In this document: one piece after another, positions 47,110 through 61,808 of the stretch
Position numbering within the stretch: position 1 is the first letter of the stretch
How the letters are laid out: each line of letters begins with the position of its first letter
Assembly (NCBI GenBank): GCA_964195605.1
Contig: CAXMSA010000002.1
Location: 608 to 64,607, forward strand
DNA: 64,000 nt
From: an uncultured Amylibacter sp.
GTDB lineage: Bacteria > Pseudomonadota > Alphaproteobacteria > Rhodobacterales > Rhodobacteraceae
Direction: 5' to 3'
The notes under the pieces: generated by a model
Told to the model about the DNA's origin: nothing
Databases searched by the model: none
Seen by the model: the letters and a program-made list of their open reading frames with translations, nothing else
Position numbers and translations under genes: made by a program

Positions 47110-47387
47110 CTATACTTTCCAGAAGCAAAACACACCCCATACGGCACCTATGCCAAGGGGGGCCCAAAGCGGCATTCCCATCAGGCCAAGCCAGGCAAGG
47201 AATATGTAAACAGTGCCTAATAGCGATATAAACAAGCGATCCCCGCGTGTGGTGGTCAGGCCCAGAACGCCTTTGCGTTCGGCCCCGCCGGGGTATTTAA
47301 TCTCGAGTATTGTCAGGATGCCCATGGCACTGAATATCCCGATAAAAACCAATGCGGTGGGCCACGTCCATGCCATCCAACTTAACA

Positions 47388-47388
<1 letters not shown>
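47110..47388 (-). CDS. DUF2160 small membrane protein (GlpU-like)
   Basis: WMAWTWPT..RKGVLGLTTTRGDRLFISL. Confidence 0.85.
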
Positions 47389-48185
<797 letters not shown>

Positions 48186-48195
48186 GGGGTCCGTC

Positions 48196-49059
48196 CTATT
48201 CCGTATCGTTTTTGGTCATTAGCGTGTAGAACAGCCATGACACAAGCAGGGTGATTGCAAAGTAGATCAGTGACATTGCCGCCGCCGGGCCAAGGTCAAA
48301 CTGGCCAAGTGCTATTTTTACCAAATCAATTGACAGCAGGGTTGTTGAGTTGCCGGGGCCGCCGCCTGTCAGCACGAATATTTCTGTGTAGATGTTGAAA
48401 CTGTCCATGAAACGTAACAGGATTGCGATGGTCAGCACCTGTTTCATTTTTGGCAATTGGATATAGCGAAACACGGCCCAGTTTGAAGCACCGTCGATTT
48501 TGGCGGCTTGATAATAGGCGTCGGGGATCGATACTAGGCCTGCGTAACTTAGTAACACGACTAGTGATGTCCAATGCCAGACATCCATTGTGATGATAGT
48601 GACCCATGCGGCAAACGGGTTTTGGGTCATGTCGTAATTGATGCCAAGTGTGGTGTTCATCAAATAGCCCAAAAGACCGATATCGGGCAGGGTGAAAATG
48701 TTCCACATCGCCCCCACCACGTTCCACGGGATCAGCATTGGTAAAGCCATTGTCACAAGGCAGACCGGCACCCAAAAGCCTGAGCGCGGCATGGACAGGG
48801 CGATGATGATGCCCAAGGGCACCTCGATTGACAGGATCAGTGCGGTGAACATGAATTGGCGGCCAAGGGCTGCATGGAAGCGGTCAGAATGCAGCAGTTT
48901 TTCAAACCAGCCCAAGCCTTCCCAGAAAAACAGGTTGTTGCCGAAGGTTTCCTGTACCGAATAGTTGACTACGGTCATCATTGGAATAAGCGCGTTGAAA
49001 GCTACCAGCAACAGAACTGGCAAAACAAAAAACCAAGCTTTTTGATAGTGGGTTTTCAT
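48196..49059 (-). CDS. Carbohydrate ABC permease (glycerol-type, GlpP-like)
   Basis: NYSVQETFG..YYQAAKIDGA. Confidence 0.9.
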   Translation of the reverse strand: MKTHYQKAWFFVLPVLLLVAFNALIPMMTVVNYSVQETFGNNLFFWEGLGWFEKLLHSDRFHAALGRQFMFTALILSIEVPLGIIIALSMPRSGFWVPVCLVTMALPMLIPWNVVGAMWNIFTLPDIGLLGYLMNTTLGINYDMTQNPFAAWVTIITMDVWHWTSLVVLLSYAGLVSIPDAYYQAAKIDGASNWAVFRYIQLPKMKQVLTIAILLRFMDSFNIYTEIFVLTGGGPGNSTTLLSIDLVKIALGQFDLGPAAAMSLIYFAITLLVSWLFYTLMTKNDTE

Positions 49060-50141
49060 GGCGTGCCCCCTTTGGCTTTTGTGGCAATCCAGCCATCGCG
49101 GTAGAGGCGGGTTTTTGCGGGGTCAAACGACAGATGAACGGTTTCGCCTTGTGAGGGAACCGTGCCTTTGACCACAACTTTAATCAGGGTATCACCGGCC
49201 ATTGCATCAACCACGTTGTGGCGCCCAACATCAGAGACTTTGCGGATAATCACCTTTAGACCATGATCGCTAAGGCTGACGTGCTCGGGGCGGATGCCGA
49301 TCTCGGTTTTGCCTTGTATGCCGTTTCCGATTTTTCCTTCAAGCTGTAATTGTTTCCCGTGGAAAAACGCAACCCCTTGTTGCACCTCGCAGGGCAACAC
49401 GTTCATGCCGGGTGAACCAATGAAATGGCCGACGAAAGTGTGCGCAGGGCGTTCGAACAGCTCAACTGGTGTGCCTATCTGGACAATCTCGCCATCGTTC
49501 ATCACCACCACCTGATCGGCAAAAGTCAGGGCTTCGGTCTGATCGTGGGTGACATAGATCATTGTGGCGCGTACTTTCTGGTGCAGCTCTTTCAGCTTGG
49601 AACGCAGTTTCCATTTTAAATGCGGATCGATCACCGTAAGCGGTTCATCGAACATCACTACATTGACATCTTTGCGCACCAAGCCGCGGCCCATGGATAT
49701 TTTTTGTTTGTTGTCAGGCGACAAGGCTGATGCGCGGGTTTGCAACATGTCGCTGAGTTCTAGCATCTGGGCGATTTCTATAACGCGGCCCTTAACGGTT
49801 GCCTCATCCATACCGCGATTGCGTAACGGGAAGGCAAGGTTGTTAAAGACGGTCATGGTGTCGTAGATCACCGGAAACTGGAATACTTGCGCAATGTTGC
49901 GTTGATCTGGGGGCAGGTGGGTGACATCCTGATCATCAAACAAAACGCGGCCTTCGGACGGGTCTAGCAGGCCTGATATGATATTCAGTAATGTGGATTT
50001 TCCGCAGCCTGAGGGGCCTAACAGGGCATAGGCACCGCCGTCTTGCCAATCCAGATTGATTTCCTTTAAAGCATAATCTTCAGGGGTATTGGGGCTTGGA
50101 TGGTAGCTGTGCCGCAGTTTTGAAAGGGTGATTTTTGCCAT
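49056..50141 (-). CDS. Carbohydrate ABC ATPase (GlpT-like)
   Basis: GPSGCGKS, AQVFQFPVIYD, degenerate signature, FDEPLT, THDQTEA. Confidence 0.9.
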   Translation of the reverse strand: MAKITLSKLRHSYHPSPNTPEDYALKEINLDWQDGGAYALLGPSGCGKSTLLNIISGLLDPSEGRVLFDDQDVTHLPPDQRNIAQVFQFPVIYDTMTVFNNLAFPLRNRGMDEATVKGRVIEIAQMLELSDMLQTRASALSPDNKQKISMGRGLVRKDVNVVMFDEPLTVIDPHLKWKLRSKLKELHQKVRATMIYVTHDQTEALTFADQVVVMNDGEIVQIGTPVELFERPAHTFVGHFIGSPGMNVLPCEVQQGVAFFHGKQLQLEGKIGNGIQGKTEIGIRPEHVSLSDHGLKVIIRKVSDVGRHNVVDAMAGDTLIKVVVKGTVPSQGETVHLSFDPAKTRLYRDGWIATKAKGGTP

Positions 50142-50151
50142 GTTTTACCCC

Positions 50152-51216
50152 TTACGCCACGAACGCGCCGTCGGGCGCGAAGTAGAAACATTGGGCGGGA
50201 TCCATGAAGAATTTACGGGTCTCGCCGATTTGATAAGGGTGGGTGCCGTGGGCCAGTGAAACCCATGTGTGATCGCCCATCTCGAAATGCGCACTGCTTT
50301 CAGAGCCGCTTAATTCAGTGACCAAAACCATGCCTGACAAGGTAACATTGGCATGCTCCGTTTGGTTTGGGGTCACGTGATGCGGGCGGATGGCTACTGT
50401 GTAGCGGCCATCCTTCAGTTTGGCAGCAGCCCCCGTCAGAGGCCATGATGTGGTGGTATCCAGCAAAGCCTTGGTACCTTGTTTGGTGATAGTCGCAGCA
50501 TTGATCGGCGGGCTGGAAAACACCTGGGCCGAGGCCAAATTATGCGGGTTGCGGTAAATTTCTGCGGTGAGGCCGAATTGGGTGACATGGCCGTCATCCA
50601 TCAGGGCGGTATAACCGCCCAGCAAAAGGGCCTCTTCGGGTTCGGATGTCGCGTAAACCACGACAGCACCACGCCCTGCAAAAAGTTCAGGCAGCTGTTC
50701 GCGTAGTTCTTCGCGCAGTTTGTAATCAAGGTTTGCAAGCGGTTCATCCAGAAATACCGCACGGCTTTCTTTGGCGATGGCGCGTGCTAATGCGGTACGT
50801 TGTTGCTGGCCGCCTGACAGTTCATGCGGACGGCGGTGCAGCATCGGGCGCAGCTGTAAAATGTCGGCAGCCTCTTCCACGCGGCCCTGAATTTCAGATT
50901 GTGCCATGCCTGCGACCCTTAAAGGGGAGGCGATGTTGTCGAATACGGTCATATGCGGGTAGTTGACGAAAAACTGGTGAACGAGTGAGATATTGCGCTT
51001 TTGGGTGGAAAGCCTGGTGACATCCTGCCCGTCCATGAATATCTGGCCGCCGGCCATGGGATCAAGGCCCGCCATCATTTTAATAAGCGAAGTCTTGCCC
51101 GCACCGGTCTGACCTAAAAGCACGTTGAAATGCCCAGGCTTAAGGGTCAGGCTGGTTTCTTTGATGTGGGTAATCGCGCCGACGCGTTTGGTGATATTTT
51201 TCAGTTCAATTGTCAT
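50152..51216 (-). CDS. Carbohydrate ABC ATPase (GlpS-like)
   Basis: GQTGAGKT, LSGGQQQR, DEPLANLDYKLREELR. Confidence 0.9.
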   Translation of the reverse strand: MTIELKNITKRVGAITHIKETSLTLKPGHFNVLLGQTGAGKTSLIKMMAGLDPMAGGQIFMDGQDVTRLSTQKRNISLVHQFFVNYPHMTVFDNIASPLRVAGMAQSEIQGRVEEAADILQLRPMLHRRPHELSGGQQQRTALARAIAKESRAVFLDEPLANLDYKLREELREQLPELFAGRGAVVVYATSEPEEALLLGGYTALMDDGHVTQFGLTAEIYRNPHNLASAQVFSSPPINAATITKQGTKALLDTTTSWPLTGAAAKLKDGRYTVAIRPHHVTPNQTEHANVTLSGMVLVTELSGSESSAHFEMGDHTWVSLAHGTHPYQIGETRKFFMDPAQCFYFAPDGAFVA

Positions 51217-51276
51217 TCGGGTACTTTTCTAGTGGGGCGCTGCCCATTAAAATGCCGGGGCCTATAAGCCCCAGCG

Positions 51277-51304
51277 TGATAAGTCTGGTTTGCCAGACTT
51301 ATCA
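51277..51304. terminator. Perfect 12-bp hairpin after the binding-protein gene
   Basis: TGATAAGTCTGG-TTTG-CCAGACTTATCA. Confidence 0.65.
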
Positions 51305-51312
51305 AAGAGTGG

Positions 51313-53049
51313 TTATTGTGCGGCCCAGCGGGCTACAAGATCGTCATAGTTGACGGTGATCCCTTGTGGTTTCTCGTTATCCAACGGGGGTTTTGCACCG
51401 CCGTTTACATACCAGAATGCTGCATCTTTTTCTTCGTTCAGACGCGGACCACAACCGCCATATACATTGGCGGCTTCATCAACCGCTTGCATACGAGCCA
51501 TTGTGATATCCATTTCACCGGCCAGACGATCCATCGCTTCTTGCGGTGTGAAAGCACCAGAGTTCACGTCACCGATTTGCTGCCACCAAATTTGGGCCAG
51601 TTTGGGATAGTCAGGCACATTAATGCCGGTTGGTGACCATGCCACACGATCAGGTGAGCGGTAAAACTCAACCAGACCACCCAGATTAGGCGCACGATCA
51701 GAGAACGACGCGTGGTTGACGGTACTGTTTCGGATGAAGGTCAAACCAACGTGTGATTTTTTCACATCCACGGTTTTTGACACAGCGAATTGTGCGTATA
51801 ACCATGCGGCTTTGGCACGATCTTCGGGTGTGGACTTAAGAATTGTCCATGAACCCACGTCCTGATAACCAACCTTTTGGCCTTCTTGCCAATAAGGGCC
51901 ATGCGGGGATGGGGCCATGCGCCAAAGCGGCTTGCCGTTGTCGTCCACAGTGTTATTGCCTTCAGACTTCGGTTTCACCATGTCGGCGGTAAAGGCTGTG
52001 TACCAGAAAATTTGTTGCGCTACGTTGCCTTGGCTAAGCGCGGGCAAGGACTGGTAGAAGTCAAAGGATGCCGCGCCCGGAGGTGCGTAAGCCCGTAACC
52101 ATTCATCCCATTTTCGAATGGCATAAACTGCTGCGGGGCCGTTTGCTGCACCACCCCGGCTGACAGACGCACCTGATGGATTACAAGAACCCGCTTCCAT
52201 ACGGATACCCCATTCATCAATAGGAATGCCGTTTGGCTCACCTTTGGAACCGGTACCGGCCATGGAAAGCCAGGCATCGGTCATGCGCCAACCCAGATCG
52301 GGGGCGCGTTTGCCATAATCCATGTGGCCGTAAATCGCTGTACCGTCGATTTCTTTGACGTCTTTGGAAAAGAACTCGGCGATGTCTTCGTAAGCTGACC
52401 AGTTCACTGGTACACCTAATTCATAACCGTATTTGGCTTTGAAGGCGGTTTTCAGGTCTTCGCGGTCAAACCAGTCTTTGCGGAACCAATAAAGGTTGGC
52501 AAATTGTTGATCGGGTAACTGATAAAGGTCGCCATCTGGCCCTGTGGTAAACTGGGTGCCGATAAAATCGCCTAGATCAAGATTAGGGTTTGTGACATCT
52601 GCACCAGCACCTGCCATCCAGTCAGTCAGGTTATAGGCCAGTTGCAAGCGTGAGTGGGTGCCAATCAAGTCACTGTCATTGACGTATGCGTCATAAAGAT
52701 TACGGCCAGTTTGCATTTGGGTTTGCACGGCTTGTACAACTTCGCCTTCGCCCAAAATCTGGTGATTGACTTTGATGCCGGTGATTTCCTCGAAAGCTTT
52801 TGTCAACACTTCAGACTCGTATGAATGTGTTGGAATGCCTTCCGAAAGCACGTTAATCTCCATGCCTGAAAACGGCGCTGCCGCCTTGATAAACCATTTC
52901 ATTTCGCCCATCTGTTCATCTTTATTCATAGATGACGGTTGAAACTCCTGATTGATCCATTTTTGAGCAGCGGCCTCATTAGCCATGGCTGTCGTGGTAC
53001 CCGCTATAACGGCAATGACCGCGGCTGCGGATAGTAAATACTTACGCAT
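51313..53049 (-). CDS. Carbohydrate ABC substrate-binding protein (glycerol-type, GlpV-like)
   Basis: Signal peptide, YQLPDQQFANLYWFR, YGHMDYGK..RWAAQ; the SBP-2 ATPase-2 permease-DUF2160 layout matches the glycerol ABC family. Start ATG 53049. Confidence 0.85.
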   Translation of the reverse strand: MRKYLLSAAAVIAVIAGTTTAMANEAAAQKWINQEFQPSSMNKDEQMGEMKWFIKAAAPFSGMEINVLSEGIPTHSYESEVLTKAFEEITGIKVNHQILGEGEVVQAVQTQMQTGRNLYDAYVNDSDLIGTHSRLQLAYNLTDWMAGAGADVTNPNLDLGDFIGTQFTTGPDGDLYQLPDQQFANLYWFRKDWFDREDLKTAFKAKYGYELGVPVNWSAYEDIAEFFSKDVKEIDGTAIYGHMDYGKRAPDLGWRMTDAWLSMAGTGSKGEPNGIPIDEWGIRMEAGSCNPSGASVSRGGAANGPAAVYAIRKWDEWLRAYAPPGAASFDFYQSLPALSQGNVAQQIFWYTAFTADMVKPKSEGNNTVDDNGKPLWRMAPSPHGPYWQEGQKVGYQDVGSWTILKSTPEDRAKAAWLYAQFAVSKTVDVKKSHVGLTFIRNSTVNHASFSDRAPNLGGLVEFYRSPDRVAWSPTGINVPDYPKLAQIWWQQIGDVNSGAFTPQEAMDRLAGEMDITMARMQAVDEAANVYGGCGPRLNEEKDAAFWYVNGGAKPPLDNEKPQGITVNYDDLVARWAAQ

Positions 53050-53211
53050 CTTGTCTCCTCCCTTATATATCGTAGTCGGCATACGCCGATCACAGTATAG
53101 TCATCCAAAAGATGGGATTCTGTCAAACTAAAAGTTTAGTAGAAATAATCACTGTTGGTATTTCGTAATGTGCATTGTTTTAACTGGGCGATTAATGGGG
53201 TTTTCCCCAGC

Positions 53212-57120: not shown

Positions 57121-57359
57121 AGAATTCTAAAAAAACCTAGCTTAGGTAATCTTAACAAACTGTTCAAATTTGTTAAAAACAGGTGAAATGCGGTTGGTTA
57201 TATAGCTCTGCGGTGCATAATTATTAAATATTTAGTAATACCCAGCACGTGGTGCTGTAAATTGTGTTTTAAATTCCCTTTTTCACAACTTTTTGAAAAG
57301 ATTCTTTTTGCACTTATTGTTTTTTTCGCTAGTGTTCCCCGAATAATGGGAGAAATAAC

Positions 57360-58340
57360 ATGACAATACTAGCGAAATTAACGAAAACCCTTTCGGCGGC
57401 TTTACTGCTGACACTGATGGTGTCGGCACCTAATACAGCTTCCGCTCAGGACGAATGTAACCGAGGAACATTGGACGCAGCTTATTGCGACCGTAACTTT
57501 GACCAAACTGCCGACCTGCCGCTGGATGAAGGCGATTGGGTTGATCCAAGCACAATCATTTTCGCATACACACCTGTTGAAGATCCAGCCGTGTATGCAA
57601 ATATCTGGGACGGCTTTGTGAAACACATGGAAGCGGTAACTGGCCGTAAAGTTGTGTTTTTCCCGGTTCAGTCAAACGCGGCCCAACTGGAAGCTATGCG
57701 TTCAGGGCGTTTGCACGTTGCTGGCTTTAACACAGGTTCAAACCCGATCGCGGTTAGCTGTGCGGGTTTTGTACCTTTCGCTATGATGGCGAAAGACGAT
57801 GGTGCATTCGGCTATGAAATGGAAATCATTGTTCCGGCAGACTCGCCTATGCAATCAGCCGCAGACATCAAAGGCAAAACAATGGCCTTTACCTCACCGA
57901 CTTCAAACTCTGGTTTCAAAGCGCCATCAGCGATTTTGAAAGGTGAGTTCGGTTTGGTTGCAGGAACCGACTTTGAACCTGCGTATTCTGGCAAGCATGA
58001 TAACTCGATCCTTGGCGTGGCAAACGGTGACTACGAAGTGGCCGCTATCGCCAACTCTGTTCTGGCACGTATGATCCGTCGTGGTGTGGTGGATGCGGAT
58101 AAAATCCGTACTATCTACAAATCGCAAACTTTTCCGACAACCGGTTATGGTCATGCATATAATCTGCACCCAGCAGTTGTCGCGAAAGTGAAAGAAGCGT
58201 TCTGGACATATTCCTGGGAGGAGCATTTCCAGAAGGAATTCAAAAAAGCAAACCGCTTTATCGGGATTACACATAAGTTCGATTGGGCTGTGATCCGTCA
58301 GATCGATGCGGCCAATGGCATAAGCTACGACTGTAAATAA
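57360..58340 (+). CDS. phnD: Phosphate/phosphite/phosphonate ABC substrate-binding protein (PhnD-like)
   Basis: Signal peptide, [31 protein letters not shown]. Confidence 0.82.
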
Positions 58341-58355
58341 ACTTCAAATTAACGT

Positions 58356-58387
58356 TATGGGGGCGGATCATATGGTCTGCCCTCATA
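58356..58387 (+). terminator. Hairpin after the binding-protein gene
   Basis: TATGGGGGCGGATC-ATAT-GGTCTGCCCTCATA (with G-U pairs), followed by TTTT. Confidence 0.55.
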
Positions 58388-58422
58388 TTTTAAGAAAATC
58401 AAAAAAGATACATGGGGATGGT

Positions 58423-59226
58423 ATGCTGCGTCTTAAGGGGCTTAAAAAGCGTTATAAAACTGGTGATTATGCGCTAAAAGGCGTTGATTTAGAGATACCG
58501 AAAGGGCAGGTTATCGCCCTTATTGGCCCATCAGGGGCGGGTAAATCCACTTTGATCAGATGTGTGAACAGACTGGTGGAACCGACCGAGGGTTCCGTAC
58601 ACTTAGGCGATCAGGAAATTACATCATTATCATCCGGCCCGCTGCGCAAAGCGCGCCGCCGCATGGGGATGATCTTTCAGGAATATGCACTGGTTGAAAG
58701 ACTGACGGTGATGGAAAACGTGCTGTCTGGCCGTTTGGGTTACGTCGGATTTTGGGCGAGTTGTTTTCGCAAATTTCCTAAGATGGATGTGCAAGAAGCA
58801 TATCGTTTGCTGGACCGTGTCGGCCTGATGCACATGGCAGACAAACGCGCGGATGAATTGTCAGGTGGGCAACGTCAGCGTGTCGGTATTTGCCGCGCTT
58901 TGATCCAAGATCCCGATTTATTGCTGGTGGATGAACCCACAGCCAGCCTTGACCCGAAAACCTCGCGCCAGATTATGCGCTTGATTAATGAACTTTGTGC
59001 TGAACGCGGCCTAGCCGCGATTATCAACATTCACGATGTGTTGCTGGCGCAAATGTATTCACAACGGGTTGTTGGCCTGAAACTGGGTGAGATCGTTTAT
59101 GACGGTAAGCCTGATGGGCTGAAACCTGCGGTTCTGACCGAGATTTATGGTGAAGAGGACTGGGAAGCAACGATTGACGAAGTTGATGAAGATGAAGAAG
59201 GTGAAGCTAAAGAGGCTGCCAAATGA
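58423..59226 (+). CDS. phnC: Phosphonate-type ABC ATPase
   Basis: [40 protein letters not shown]. Start ATG 58423. Confidence 0.9.
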
Positions 59227-60032
59227 GCAGTGCCAGCACAGATTTTCCATCCAAATGGAAAAAACCGCCCTTCATTAAAAGCCCCGCCTTGCGTTGGTCG
59301 ATCATTACCGGCAGCCTGATTTATCTGGCCCTTGCCTTTAGTACAATGGACGTGGACTGGGGACGTGCAGCAGAAGGTTTGCCACGCGGCAAACGGTTTT
59401 TGGGCGCATTTTTTCCGCCTAACTTTTCTGACAACCTTGGGGTTGTTTGGGAGGGGATCTTTGAAAGCAGCTGGATGGCGATTATTTCTACCTTTACGGG
59501 GATCGCACTGTCGATCCCGATCGGCTTGGGGGCGGCTAAAAACCTAGCCCCGAAATGGGTGTATCTGACATGCCGTTCTATCATCGGTGGCTCGCGGACA
59601 TTCCCTGAGATTATCCTTGCGATCTTTGCGGTGAAGTTCTTCGGTTTTGGCCCGTTTGCGGGCTTTGTCGCCCTGTCTATAGGAACCATCGGGTTTTACG
59701 CTAAGCTTCTGGCAGAGGATATTGAGAACATCAATCCGACACAGGCCGAAGCGGTTAAGGCCACGGGTTCCAGTTGGCTGCAATGGATCAACTATGCGAT
59801 CCAGCCACAGGTTATGCCACGCATGATCGGGTTATCCGTGTACCGCTTGGATATTAACTTTCGTGAAAGTGCGGTTGTGGGGATCGTGGGGGGCGGTGGC
59901 ATTGGTGCCACGCTGAACACGGCCTTTAACCGTTATGAATTTGATACGGCTGCGGCCATTTTGCTGATCATCATCGGTATCGTTATGGTGCTTGAATATA
60001 CATCCGGCTACCTTAGAAAGTTGGTACAATAA
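59223..60032 (+). CDS. phnE: Phosphonate-type ABC permease
   Basis: [30 protein letters not shown]. Confidence 0.9.
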
Positions 60033-60033
60033 C

Positions 60034-60846
60034 ATGCCTTTAATTGAAACGCCTGATGGCCCCGCATGGAAAAGACGCACACCGAAAGAACAATATATCA
60101 GATGGTTTTTCTGGATTATTGCGCTGACAATTATCGCTTATGCTTGGAAAGGCATATCTGACAAGACCGTTTGGTTTTTTGTGCAAGATGCGCCGCGCCA
60201 AATGGCAGATATTGCTGGCCGGATGGTACCGCCGAAGTTCAGCTATATGTCGCAGCTATGGGTACCTATCTGGGATACGCTGAACATTGCAACGCTTGGA
60301 ACGGTCATTGCCTTGGTGATTGCGGTGCCTGTGGCATTTGCTGCCGCCCATAACACCACACCACACCCGATTGTGCGTGCGGTTGCGATTTTCATAATCG
60401 TGTCGTCACGCTCAGTAAACTCTTTGATCTGGGCTTTGATGCTGGTGTTTATCTTCGGCCCCGGTGTTCTGGCTGGCACAATAGCTATTGGCCTGCGCTC
60501 AATCGGGTTCTGTGCCAAACTGCTTTATGAGGGGATTGAGGAAATTGATCACACCCAAGTAGAAGCGATTGAAGCCACTGGGGCCAGCAAAGCCCAGCAA
60601 ATGGTGTTTGGGATCATACCGCAAATCTTGCCGACATTGGCCGGTATCGGTGTGTTTCGCTGGGATATTAACATCCGCGAAAGTACCATTTTGGGTTATG
60701 TGGGTGCGGGCGGTATTGGCCTGCAACTTAGCGGTTCAATTGATACTTTGGCTTGGACACAGGTTTCCGTGATCCTACTGGTGATCCTGTTAACCGTGAT
60801 TGTCAGTGAATGGGTTTCAGCCAAGGTACGTGGTGCCATTATCTGA
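60034..60846 (+). CDS. phnE: Second phosphonate-type ABC permease
   Basis: SRSVNSLIWAL..KLLYEGIEE..WDINIRES. Start ATG 60034. Confidence 0.9.
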   Translation: MPLIETPDGPAWKRRTPKEQYIRWFFWIIALTIIAYAWKGISDKTVWFFVQDAPRQMADIAGRMVPPKFSYMSQLWVPIWDTLNIATLGTVIALVIAVPVAFAAAHNTTPHPIVRAVAIFIIVSSRSVNSLIWALMLVFIFGPGVLAGTIAIGLRSIGFCAKLLYEGIEEIDHTQVEAIEATGASKAQQMVFGIIPQILPTLAGIGVFRWDINIRESTILGYVGAGGIGLQLSGSIDTLAWTQVSVILLVILLTVIVSEWVSAKVRGAII

Positions 60847-61759
60847 TCATAAGAATTGTTGTGGCAGTACCAACTGGATCTTTGACGCTTATGAAGCGGC
60901 AAGGCCCCGCCTGCCACAACCCTTGTTCAGCAACAGTTATCAACTGACTGACAATCTAATCAGTATTGCCGATGATTTTGATACCTTCCTGCTGGATGCG
61001 TTTGGTGTGCTGGTTGTCGGGGATAAAGCTGTTCCCGGTGTTATTGCGCGTGTTGAAGAATTGCAGGGGCTGGGCAAGCGCGTCATGGTTGTGACAAATT
61101 CAGCCAAGACGACAAGGCAGGCCCATGCTGCACGCTATGCCAAGCTTGGGTTTAACTTTGGCGCGAACGATATCATTACCAGCCGAGACCCCGCATTGGC
61201 CGCTATCGGGCATGGGCCGGATTATAAGTGGGGTCTGGTTGCAGACCCAGCTTTGGGATCGGACGGGATTGCGCATCTTGATGGAGTTTTTCTGGCGGAT
61301 GATGAAACTGTATATGAAACGGTTGATGCTATTTTGATGCTGGGCTGTACGCATTGGACCGAAGCGCGTCAGAAAATTCTAGAGCAAGCACTGCGCCGTA
61401 ATCCCAGACCGGTTTATGTGGGAAACCCTGACATTGCTGCACCACAAGCAAAAAAGGCGTCTTATCAACCCGGTTATTTTGCCCATCGTTTAGCAGATGT
61501 AACGAGTATTACACCACAGTTTTTCGGCAAACCGTTTCCAAACATTTTTGAATGTGCTTTCACAAAACTTAGCCTAGACTTTGACCGCGACCGTACTGTT
61601 ATGGTCGGGGATAGTCTGCATACTGATATTCTGGGTGGGCGCGGGGTCGGCATTAAAACCGCGCTGATTACCGACTACGGCACGCTTGCGGGAATGGACA
61701 TTAATGTTGCTATAAAAAAATCTGGTATTATACCTGATTATGTTATGCCGCACCCGTAA
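60800..61759 (+). CDS. HAD-superfamily class IIA hydrolase; start uncertain (GTG near 60830 possible)
   Basis: Motif I FLLDAFGVL, motif II VTNS, motif III GKP, motif IV GDSLHTDILG. Confidence 0.87.
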   Translation: MSVNGFQPRYVVPLSDHKNCCGSTNWIFDAYEAARPRLPQPLFSNSYQLTDNLISIADDFDTFLLDAFGVLVVGDKAVPGVIARVEELQGLGKRVMVVTNSAKTTRQAHAARYAKLGFNFGANDIITSRDPALAAIGHGPDYKWGLVADPALGSDGIAHLDGVFLADDETVYETVDAILMLGCTHWTEARQKILEQALRRNPRPVYVGNPDIAAPQAKKASYQPGYFAHRLADVTSITPQFFGKPFPNIFECAFTKLSLDFDRDRTVMVGDSLHTDILGGRGVGIKTALITDYGTLAGMDINVAIKKSGIIPDYVMPHP

Positions 61760-61778
61760 GGGGCATGGTATAAAAACT

Positions 61779-61808
61779 TTGACTAAATGGTCAAAAAAAG
61801 ACTACGCT
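61779..61808 (+). promoter_or_regulatory. RutR-like operator overlapping a sigma70 promoter
   Basis: TTGACTAAATGGTCAA (one mismatch to the E. coli RutR box TTGACCAnnTGGTCAA); TTGACT-N18-TACGCT. Confidence 0.65.

Follow-up and report, generated by a model that had tools for sequence, protein, structure and literature searches.

A five-gene operon occupies positions 57360-61759, on the forward strand, of the window, by which we mean the whole 64,000-nucleotide stretch of contig CAXMSA010000002.1 (uncultured Amylibacter sp., assembly GCA_964195605.1) that was analysed. The genes are co-directional, touch or overlap one another, and encode a PhnD-like binding protein, a PhnC-like ATPase, two PhnE-like permeases and an enzyme of the HAD-IIA type. 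The original prediction, made from the sequence alone, had described such a PhnCDEE-like transporter coupled to a HAD-IIA enzyme, and the five open reading frames (ORFs) and their Pfam and NCBIfam matches bear this out. We propose that the transporter is a glycerol phosphate importer and that the enzyme most likely acts on its cargo.

The binding protein gene (57360..58340, +) matches PF12974 (212 bits) and TIGR01098 (217 bits), as well as the GpxB structures 9LF9 and 9LFB. It is followed by a PhnC-type ABC ATPase gene (58357..59226, +; TIGR02315, 328 bits), which corresponds to GpxA in a figure legend of PMC12718374. The TIGR02315 match begins at ORF residue 23, and the true start of this gene is probably the ATG at 58423. 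The two PhnE-type permease genes (59223..60032, +, and 59992..60846, +) match TIGR01097 with 263 and 280 bits, respectively. Homologue alignments of the second permease open at about residue 15; its true start is probably the ATG at 60034. The last gene (60800..61759, +) was assigned, from its Pfam and NCBIfam matches and an AlphaFold model, to a HAD-IIA clade with an aromatic residue two positions after the catalytic Asp (Asp+2). The database calls this gene from a GTG start at 60833, giving a protein of 308 amino acids and an overlap of 14 nucleotides with the permease stop. That database protein, P0007, is identical to the HAD enzyme of the window, and its numbering is used below.

The transporter and its predicted cargo

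GpxB serves as binding protein to an ABC importer of sn-glycerol-1-phosphate (G1P), the archaeal lipid backbone, and sn-glycerol-3-phosphate (G3P) (Wang et al., PNAS 2025, PMC12718374). GpxB proteins of five strains have a dissociation constant (Kd) of 1-2.5 uM and bind other C3 phosphates weakly; UgpB is the sole other protein shown to bind G1P (PMC12718374). In the GpxB structure, the phosphate is held by T111, G112, Y138, S168, N169, S170 and H199, and the glycerol hydroxyls by R223 and T247, two residues that stand where PhnD has the amine-binding Glu177 and Asp205 (PMC12718374).

The binding protein of the window aligns with Marinobacter GpxB (PDB 9LF9/9LFB) over 290 residues (query 37-326; E 4.7e-119, 400 bits). 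All nine ligand contacts listed above are identical in the HMMER alignment. The PhnD equivalog model TIGR03431, by contrast, gives 141.2 bits against a cut-off of 261.1. On the basis of orthology and of conserved ligand residues, we therefore identify the four transporter genes as predicted GpxBACD, an importer of the PhnT family. Because the nine contacts are kept, the predicted cargo is an ordinary phosphomonoester and not a P-N, P-O-P or phosphonate compound. The original prediction had favored the latter class of substrates and had opposed to it a binding protein for common phosphomonoesters; the conservation of the GpxB ligand residues predicts exactly such a protein, and the enzyme is likewise tied to genes of glycerol phosphate uptake rather than to P-N or pyrophosphate metabolism.

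The GpxBACD transporter itself is already known from Phaeobacter sp. MED193 and Marinobacter sp. DSM 11874, where it likewise consists of a PhnT-family binding protein, an ATPase and two permeases (PMC12718374). That paper covers the transporter only and names no phosphatase, HAD or catabolic enzyme. The window differs in that glycerol phosphate binding is predicted by sequence and in that neither a histidine kinase nor a GlpR gene adjoins the operon. PhnCDE of E. coli shares the transporter family and the gene order, whereas the window has Arg and Thr for the amine-binding Glu and Asp and lacks C-P lyase genes. Operons of this kind should no longer carry the name phosphonate transporter in annotations.

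That the operon is not a classical alkylphosphonate system, as had been claimed, is upheld, and no phosphonate-cleaving gene lies inside the operon or adjoins it. The accompanying claim that C-P lyase, PhnX and PhnW are absent is correct for the operon. Across the whole metagenome-assembled genome (MAG), PhnJ gave no match and PhnX none above its cut-off, while PtxD was not searched for; the claim fails genome-wide for PhnW, which is encoded on another contig.

The GpxB of the window is 58-64% identical to most Rhodobacteraceae GpxBs and exceeds 70% in only three sampled genera. Its match to the gammaproteobacterial Marinobacter protein 9LF9 (E 4.7e-119) is stronger than those identities would predict. 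This unexpectedly strong match suggests either two GpxB subtypes or lateral transfer.

The HAD-IIA enzyme and its aromatic clade

The enzyme is an uncharacterised HAD-IIA variant. Its motif I, F-L-L-D-A-F-G-V-L, is encoded by TTC CTG CTG GAT GCG TTT GGT GTG CTG. The core D-A-F (GAT GCG TTT) lies at 60995..61003 (+), with the Asp nucleophile at 60995-60997 and a Phe at 61001-61003, where an Asp general acid/base would be expected at Asp+2. Motifs II (VTNS), III (GKP) and IV (MVGDSLHTD) are intact, and the catalytic scaffold is present as D55, T88, K233, D260 and D265. Both domains of HAD-IIA enzymes (NagD-like, with a C2a cap) are found: Hydrolase_6 (PF13344, 61 bits) and Hydrolase_like (PF13242, 49 bits).

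Family models place the enzyme at the border of TIGR01459, a hypothetical equivalog: the protein scores 102.9 bits against a cut-off of 103.75, and 103.9 bits when read in the genome frame. The original prediction had likened the enzyme to LHPP and phosphonatase. Neither family model fits: the LHPP model TIGR01458 gives 43 bits against a cut-off of 175.95, and none of the enzyme's 17 NCBIfam hits is to the phosphonatase (PhnX) model TIGR01422. LHPP and PhnX likewise lack an Asp at +2, and phosphonatase requires a Schiff-base lysine in another cap type.

A confident AlphaFold model (predicted local distance difference test, pLDDT, 91.3; predicted template-modelling score, pTM, 0.89) shows a predicted fold that is that of an ordinary HAD-IIA protein. 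The best Foldseek match of the model is 2HX1 (template-modelling scores, TM, 0.77/0.83), followed by chronophin, PGP, Rv1692, NagD and LHPP, with E values of 1e-16 to 1e-19 for 2HX1, chronophin, PGP and NagD. Two of the characterised structural relatives, Rv1692 (4I9F) and mouse PGP (7PO7), are glycerol-3-phosphate phosphatases. Rv1692 (4I9F/4I9G) and mammalian PGP/G3PP (7PO7) resemble the enzyme in fold, cap type, motif I nucleophile, motifs II-IV and proposed substrate class. In sequence, however, they are distant (E 1e-10 to 1e-14), and the enzyme of the window differs from them by the Phe at Asp+2 and by a conserved N-terminal extension of ~45 residues.

An aromatic residue at Asp+2 characterises the clade as a whole. 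An exhaustive profile-free search yielded 130 cluster representatives with E<=1e-30, and 916 when the limit was E<=1e-10; the best 150 were aligned, and ~135 of them span motif I. Among these ~135 relatives, Asp+2 is Phe in 85, Tyr in 40 and Trp in six (131/135 aromatic), and Asp in one. The nucleophile Asp is kept in 134, and the catalytic Asp and Lys are identical, with Thr or Ser in motif II, in at least 129. The missing second Asp, which the original prediction had pointed out, is therefore real and not due to chance. Beyond the motifs, Tyr20, Ser117-Arg118, Trp175, Arg192, Asn198-Pro199-Asp200 and His263 are invariant in the clade. Tyr20 sits in the conserved, well-folded N-terminal extension, Asn198-Pro199-Asp200 in the cap, and His263 inside motif IV.

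The same genome encodes a canonical TIGR01459 paralogue (131 bits) with the motif I D-L-W-G on contig C3 (locus L091, 1471-2328, +), directly upstream of ribF. Since the aromatic residue also occurs in this ribF-linked paralogue, it marks the lineage rather than an adaptation of the operon. The paralogue adjoins ribF and not a transporter, whereas the HAD gene of the window adjoins a transporter. The ribF gene encodes riboflavin kinase/FAD synthetase, and its proximity hints at a different, flavin-related role for the paralogue branch.

Two structural-genomics entries belong to the same clade of uncharacterised HAD-IIA proteins as TIGR01459 and also have an aromatic residue at +2: 2HX1 from Cytophaga hutchinsonii (D-A-F-G-V) and 6NQ4 from Brucella suis (D-V-W-G-V). 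The papers that we searched on 2HX1, TIGR01459 and G1P phosphatase contain nothing functional. The clade thus comprises ~130 sequence clusters at E<=1e-30 and two crystal structures, with no member of known function. It bears on whether a HAD enzyme lacking the Asp+2 that textbook HAD phosphatases need can still transfer phosphoryl groups to or from an alcohol.

Genomic company and expression

The HAD gene recurs behind the same transporter genes in many genomes. We collected 80 loci from species-representative genomes and found the order binding protein, ATPase, permease, permease, HAD in 69 of them, from Rhodobacterales, Hoeflea and Roseibium to the gammaproteobacterial Spiribacter. These loci were retrieved partly by a pattern holding F-G-V and are hence not used for motif conservation, which we argue instead from the alignment of ~135 relatives and from the HAD homologues of loci L108-L121. 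Unlinked homologues are 33-50% identical, and all have D-(A/S)-(F/Y)-G-V.

An unbiased recount among 250 genus representatives of the family gave GpxB in 66, the HAD in 74 and both in 45. A HAD homologue occurs anywhere in the genome in 45/66 genomes with GpxB versus 29/184 without it. The HAD gene directly follows gpxBACD in 32 of the 66 GpxB genomes, on the same strand and at a constant 2.45-2.56 kb downstream.

Homologues of the enzyme also accompany Ugp or Ugp-like importers. At three loci (L121, L040 and L042), the order is a GlpR-like regulator, the HAD and then UgpBAEC, with UgpB at 553 bits against a cut-off of 411. At five others (L111, L113 and L116-L118), a GlpR-like gene and a CUT1 transporter of the UgpB-like kind are divergent from the HAD gene. 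A further locus (L120, 4261-6133) has a gene for a glycerophosphodiester phosphodiesterase (GDPD) immediately before the HAD start, with UgpB- and UgpC-like genes near. In Marivita-type loci (L021, L031, L039, L054 and L070), a GlpR-like regulator is followed by gpxBACD, the HAD and ugpB to ugpC, such that the HAD is flanked by both importers. The HAD gene thus keeps company with both known importers of G1P and G3P and with their regulator of the glycerol type. The link between this enzyme and glycerol phosphate uptake appears to be undescribed in the papers searched.

A GlpR-type DeoR gene occupies the position upstream of the operon in many related loci. Pho-regulated phosphorus scavenging was considered as the main role of the system and rejected, given the GlpR-type carbon regulators at related loci.

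A published proteome provides a putative link to expression. In Table S1 of PMC12718374, cultures of Phaeobacter sp. MED193 on G1P or on G3P are set against glycerol-grown cells. The most induced proteins, MED193_19449, 19454 and 19459, are transporter parts; next comes MED193_19469, an “uncharacterized protein” with log2 fold changes of 3.8 (G1P) and 3.7 (G3P), and few other proteins differ (PMC12718374). The fifth gene is the HAD in both Phaeobacter sp. SH40 and Pseudophaeobacter leonis. From this synteny, and from locus tags that step by five, we infer that MED193_19469 is the fifth gene and thus a putative HAD.

Proposed function and genomic setting

Taken together, these observations suggest that GpxBACD imports G1P and G3P and that the HAD enzyme uses the glycerol phosphate so imported as its substrate, G1P phosphatase being its likeliest activity. 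We put the probability of this joint reading at about 0.6. GpxBACD would take up both stereoisomers. The HAD gene is probably translationally coupled to the last permease gene because of their 14-nucleotide overlap. Its product, presumably a cytoplasmic and Mg-dependent HAD-IIA enzyme, would dephosphorylate G1P and perhaps G3P too. The resulting glycerol, which is prochiral, would then be turned into G3P by glycerol kinase and enter the normal GlpD route, and phosphate would be set free.

The G1P phosphatase proposal answers a metabolic need. G3P enters metabolism via GlpD and G1P cannot, so G1P needs one further step, of which hydrolysis to glycerol followed by the glycerol kinase GlpK is the simplest. 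A GlpK is encoded in this genome. Such a route fits the proteomes of G1P- and glycerol-grown cells, which are near-identical apart from the operon, and it has a precedent in two HAD-IIA enzymes that have been characterised as glycerol-3-phosphate phosphatases. The published work explained how the archaeal lipid backbone gets into marine bacteria, not how the “wrong-handed” G1P is later metabolized (PMC12718374). A conserved, co-located and putatively co-induced HAD enzyme is a candidate for that step.

Several points weigh against this proposal. One is chemical: in HAD phosphatases, Asp+2 protonates the leaving alcohol and activates water (bioRxiv 10.64898/2026.09.11.751015). Here, Phe replaces this Asp and glycerol is a poor leaving group, such that a plain phosphatase needs a substitute residue. 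Given the absence of Asp+2, either another residue does the job or the reaction differs. From their invariance in the clade, His263 in motif IV, Tyr20 in the N-terminal extension and Asp200 in the NPD motif of the cap are candidates for a substitute acid/base. The reaction, its stereo-preference and this surrogate residue are all inferred.

The distribution of the enzyme also tells against it in part. About half of gpx operons have no HAD, and no replacement enzyme recurs downstream of these operons; the HAD is therefore not obligatory for uptake. The nearest representative from the same genus has neither GpxB nor the HAD, and this genome contains no GlpR of the gpx/ugp type. A test of co-occurrence between glycerol kinase and the HAD was powerless, as the kinase is found in 238 of 251 genomes. 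The identification of MED193_19469 as the HAD was not confirmed by sequence: a search of papers for the locus tag, a homologue search with the SH40 protein and a look-up of cluster members gave no MED193 record. In a minority branch (L108, L109 and L110; ~41% identical), the HAD gene lies downstream of a gene for an Fe-ADH_2 protein of 440-500 amino acids, with SIS, SDR and sugar kinase genes near. The best NCBIfam match of this Fe-ADH_2 protein is G1P dehydrogenase, at 142 bits and below the cut-off. This sub-branch suggests other polyol phosphates as substrates, and the set may represent a separate polyol phosphate pathway.

The HAD gene is moreover an island of divergence. Compared with relatives in Amylibacter MAGs (L011 and L012) across 60750-61800, it shows ~62% nucleotide identity, with edges at the gene borders, while gpxBACD shows 79-89% and the downstream Bmp gene 85-86%. 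This pattern, a further caveat, points to allelic replacement, or else to a gene that kept its position and evolved fast.

The enzyme might not process the cargo at all, but bind a ligand, serve in regulation, or travel with uptake operons as a slow “housekeeping” phosphatase. The gpx operons that work without a HAD speak for this idea, as does the divergence of the gene (62% versus 79-89% in the transporter genes), and a missing acid/base could mean very low turnover. We consider it unlikely, however, since the catalytic residues of motifs I-IV are kept in nearly all of the ~135 distant relatives, as in a working catalyst, and since the putative MED193 orthologue, identified by locus tag and synteny, is induced along with the transporter. 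Alternatively, the enzyme could be a glycerol phosphate mutase, whose phospho-aspartyl form would move the phosphate from O1 to O3 via glycerol-1,3-bisphosphate and thus convert G1P to G3P without ATP. Loss of Asp+2 would then shield the phospho-enzyme from water, in keeping with a clade that retains the nucleophile and the Mg site and lacks the water-activating residue throughout. The linkage to both importers and to GlpR does not distinguish this model from the phosphatase model, and little proteome change between G1P- and glycerol-grown cells is also compatible with a mutase. HAD mutases do exist, such as beta-phosphoglucomutase, but the known ones retain Asp+2 and use it in both transfers. 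With no glycerol-1,3-bisphosphate metabolism known to us, we hold a mutase to be quite unlikely. If true, it would constitute a one-enzyme catabolic bridge over the “lipid divide”, from archaeal G1P to bacterial G3P.

Models built on phosphorus compounds other than glycerol phosphates fare worse. The original prediction invoked import and cleavage of an atypical phosphorus bond, as in a phosphoramidate, a pyrophosphate, an acyl phosphate or an activated phosphonate. It drew on the missing Asp+2, on phosphonatase and LHPP as HAD enzymes that lack this residue, and on the absence of any other enzyme from the operon. We now regard it as highly improbable: the ligand-contacting residues of GpxB all recur in the binding pocket, the LHPP model reaches only 43 of 176 bits and the phosphonatase model gives no hit, the neighbors of homologues are glycerol phosphate genes, and the aromatic +2 residue belongs to the lineage. 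The least probable idea, to which we give almost no credence, is that the transporter imports 2-aminoethylphosphonate for the PhnW-PhnA pathway, whose genes lie on another contig. Contig C97 (locus L122) does carry a phn-type LysR gene together with genes for PhnW (468 bits) and the phosphonoacetate hydrolase PhnA (504 bits), such that this genome can probably use 2-aminoethylphosphonate, and no transporter gene lies beside them in the ~4 kb of the contig examined. Against this, the binding protein of the window shares with GpxB the Arg and Thr that replace the amine-binding Glu177 and Asp205 of PhnD, and the PhnD equivalog score is far under its cut-off.

The host genome is a 2.63-Mb MAG that is 94.6% complete, and its closest named relatives are Amylibacter MAGs. 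On contig C94 (locus L128), genes for a true UgpB (525 bits) and UgpA (390 bits) adjoin a divergent LysR gene; the genome therefore holds both known G1P/G3P importers. No HAD gene lies beside this UgpB/UgpA pair in the ~4.3 kb examined.

Upstream of the operon, an AT-rich intergenic region (57121..57359, strand unassigned) likely contains its promoter and operator, as read from the sequence. A sigma-70-like site occurs at 57293-57320, although a scan of 57121..57359 gave such sites no more often than shuffled sequence did. No regulator gene adjoins the operon in the window. The flanks are unrelated to the operon: a GDSL lipase gene and a YbbA/YbbP-like ABC pair (an ABC ATPase and an FtsX permease) lie upstream, and a Bmp-type ABC system lies downstream. 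A glycerol-type CUT1 ABC operon, which encodes a 589-amino acid binding protein, two ATPases and permeases, is located on the reverse strand at 47110-53082, 4 kb upstream of the gpx operon.

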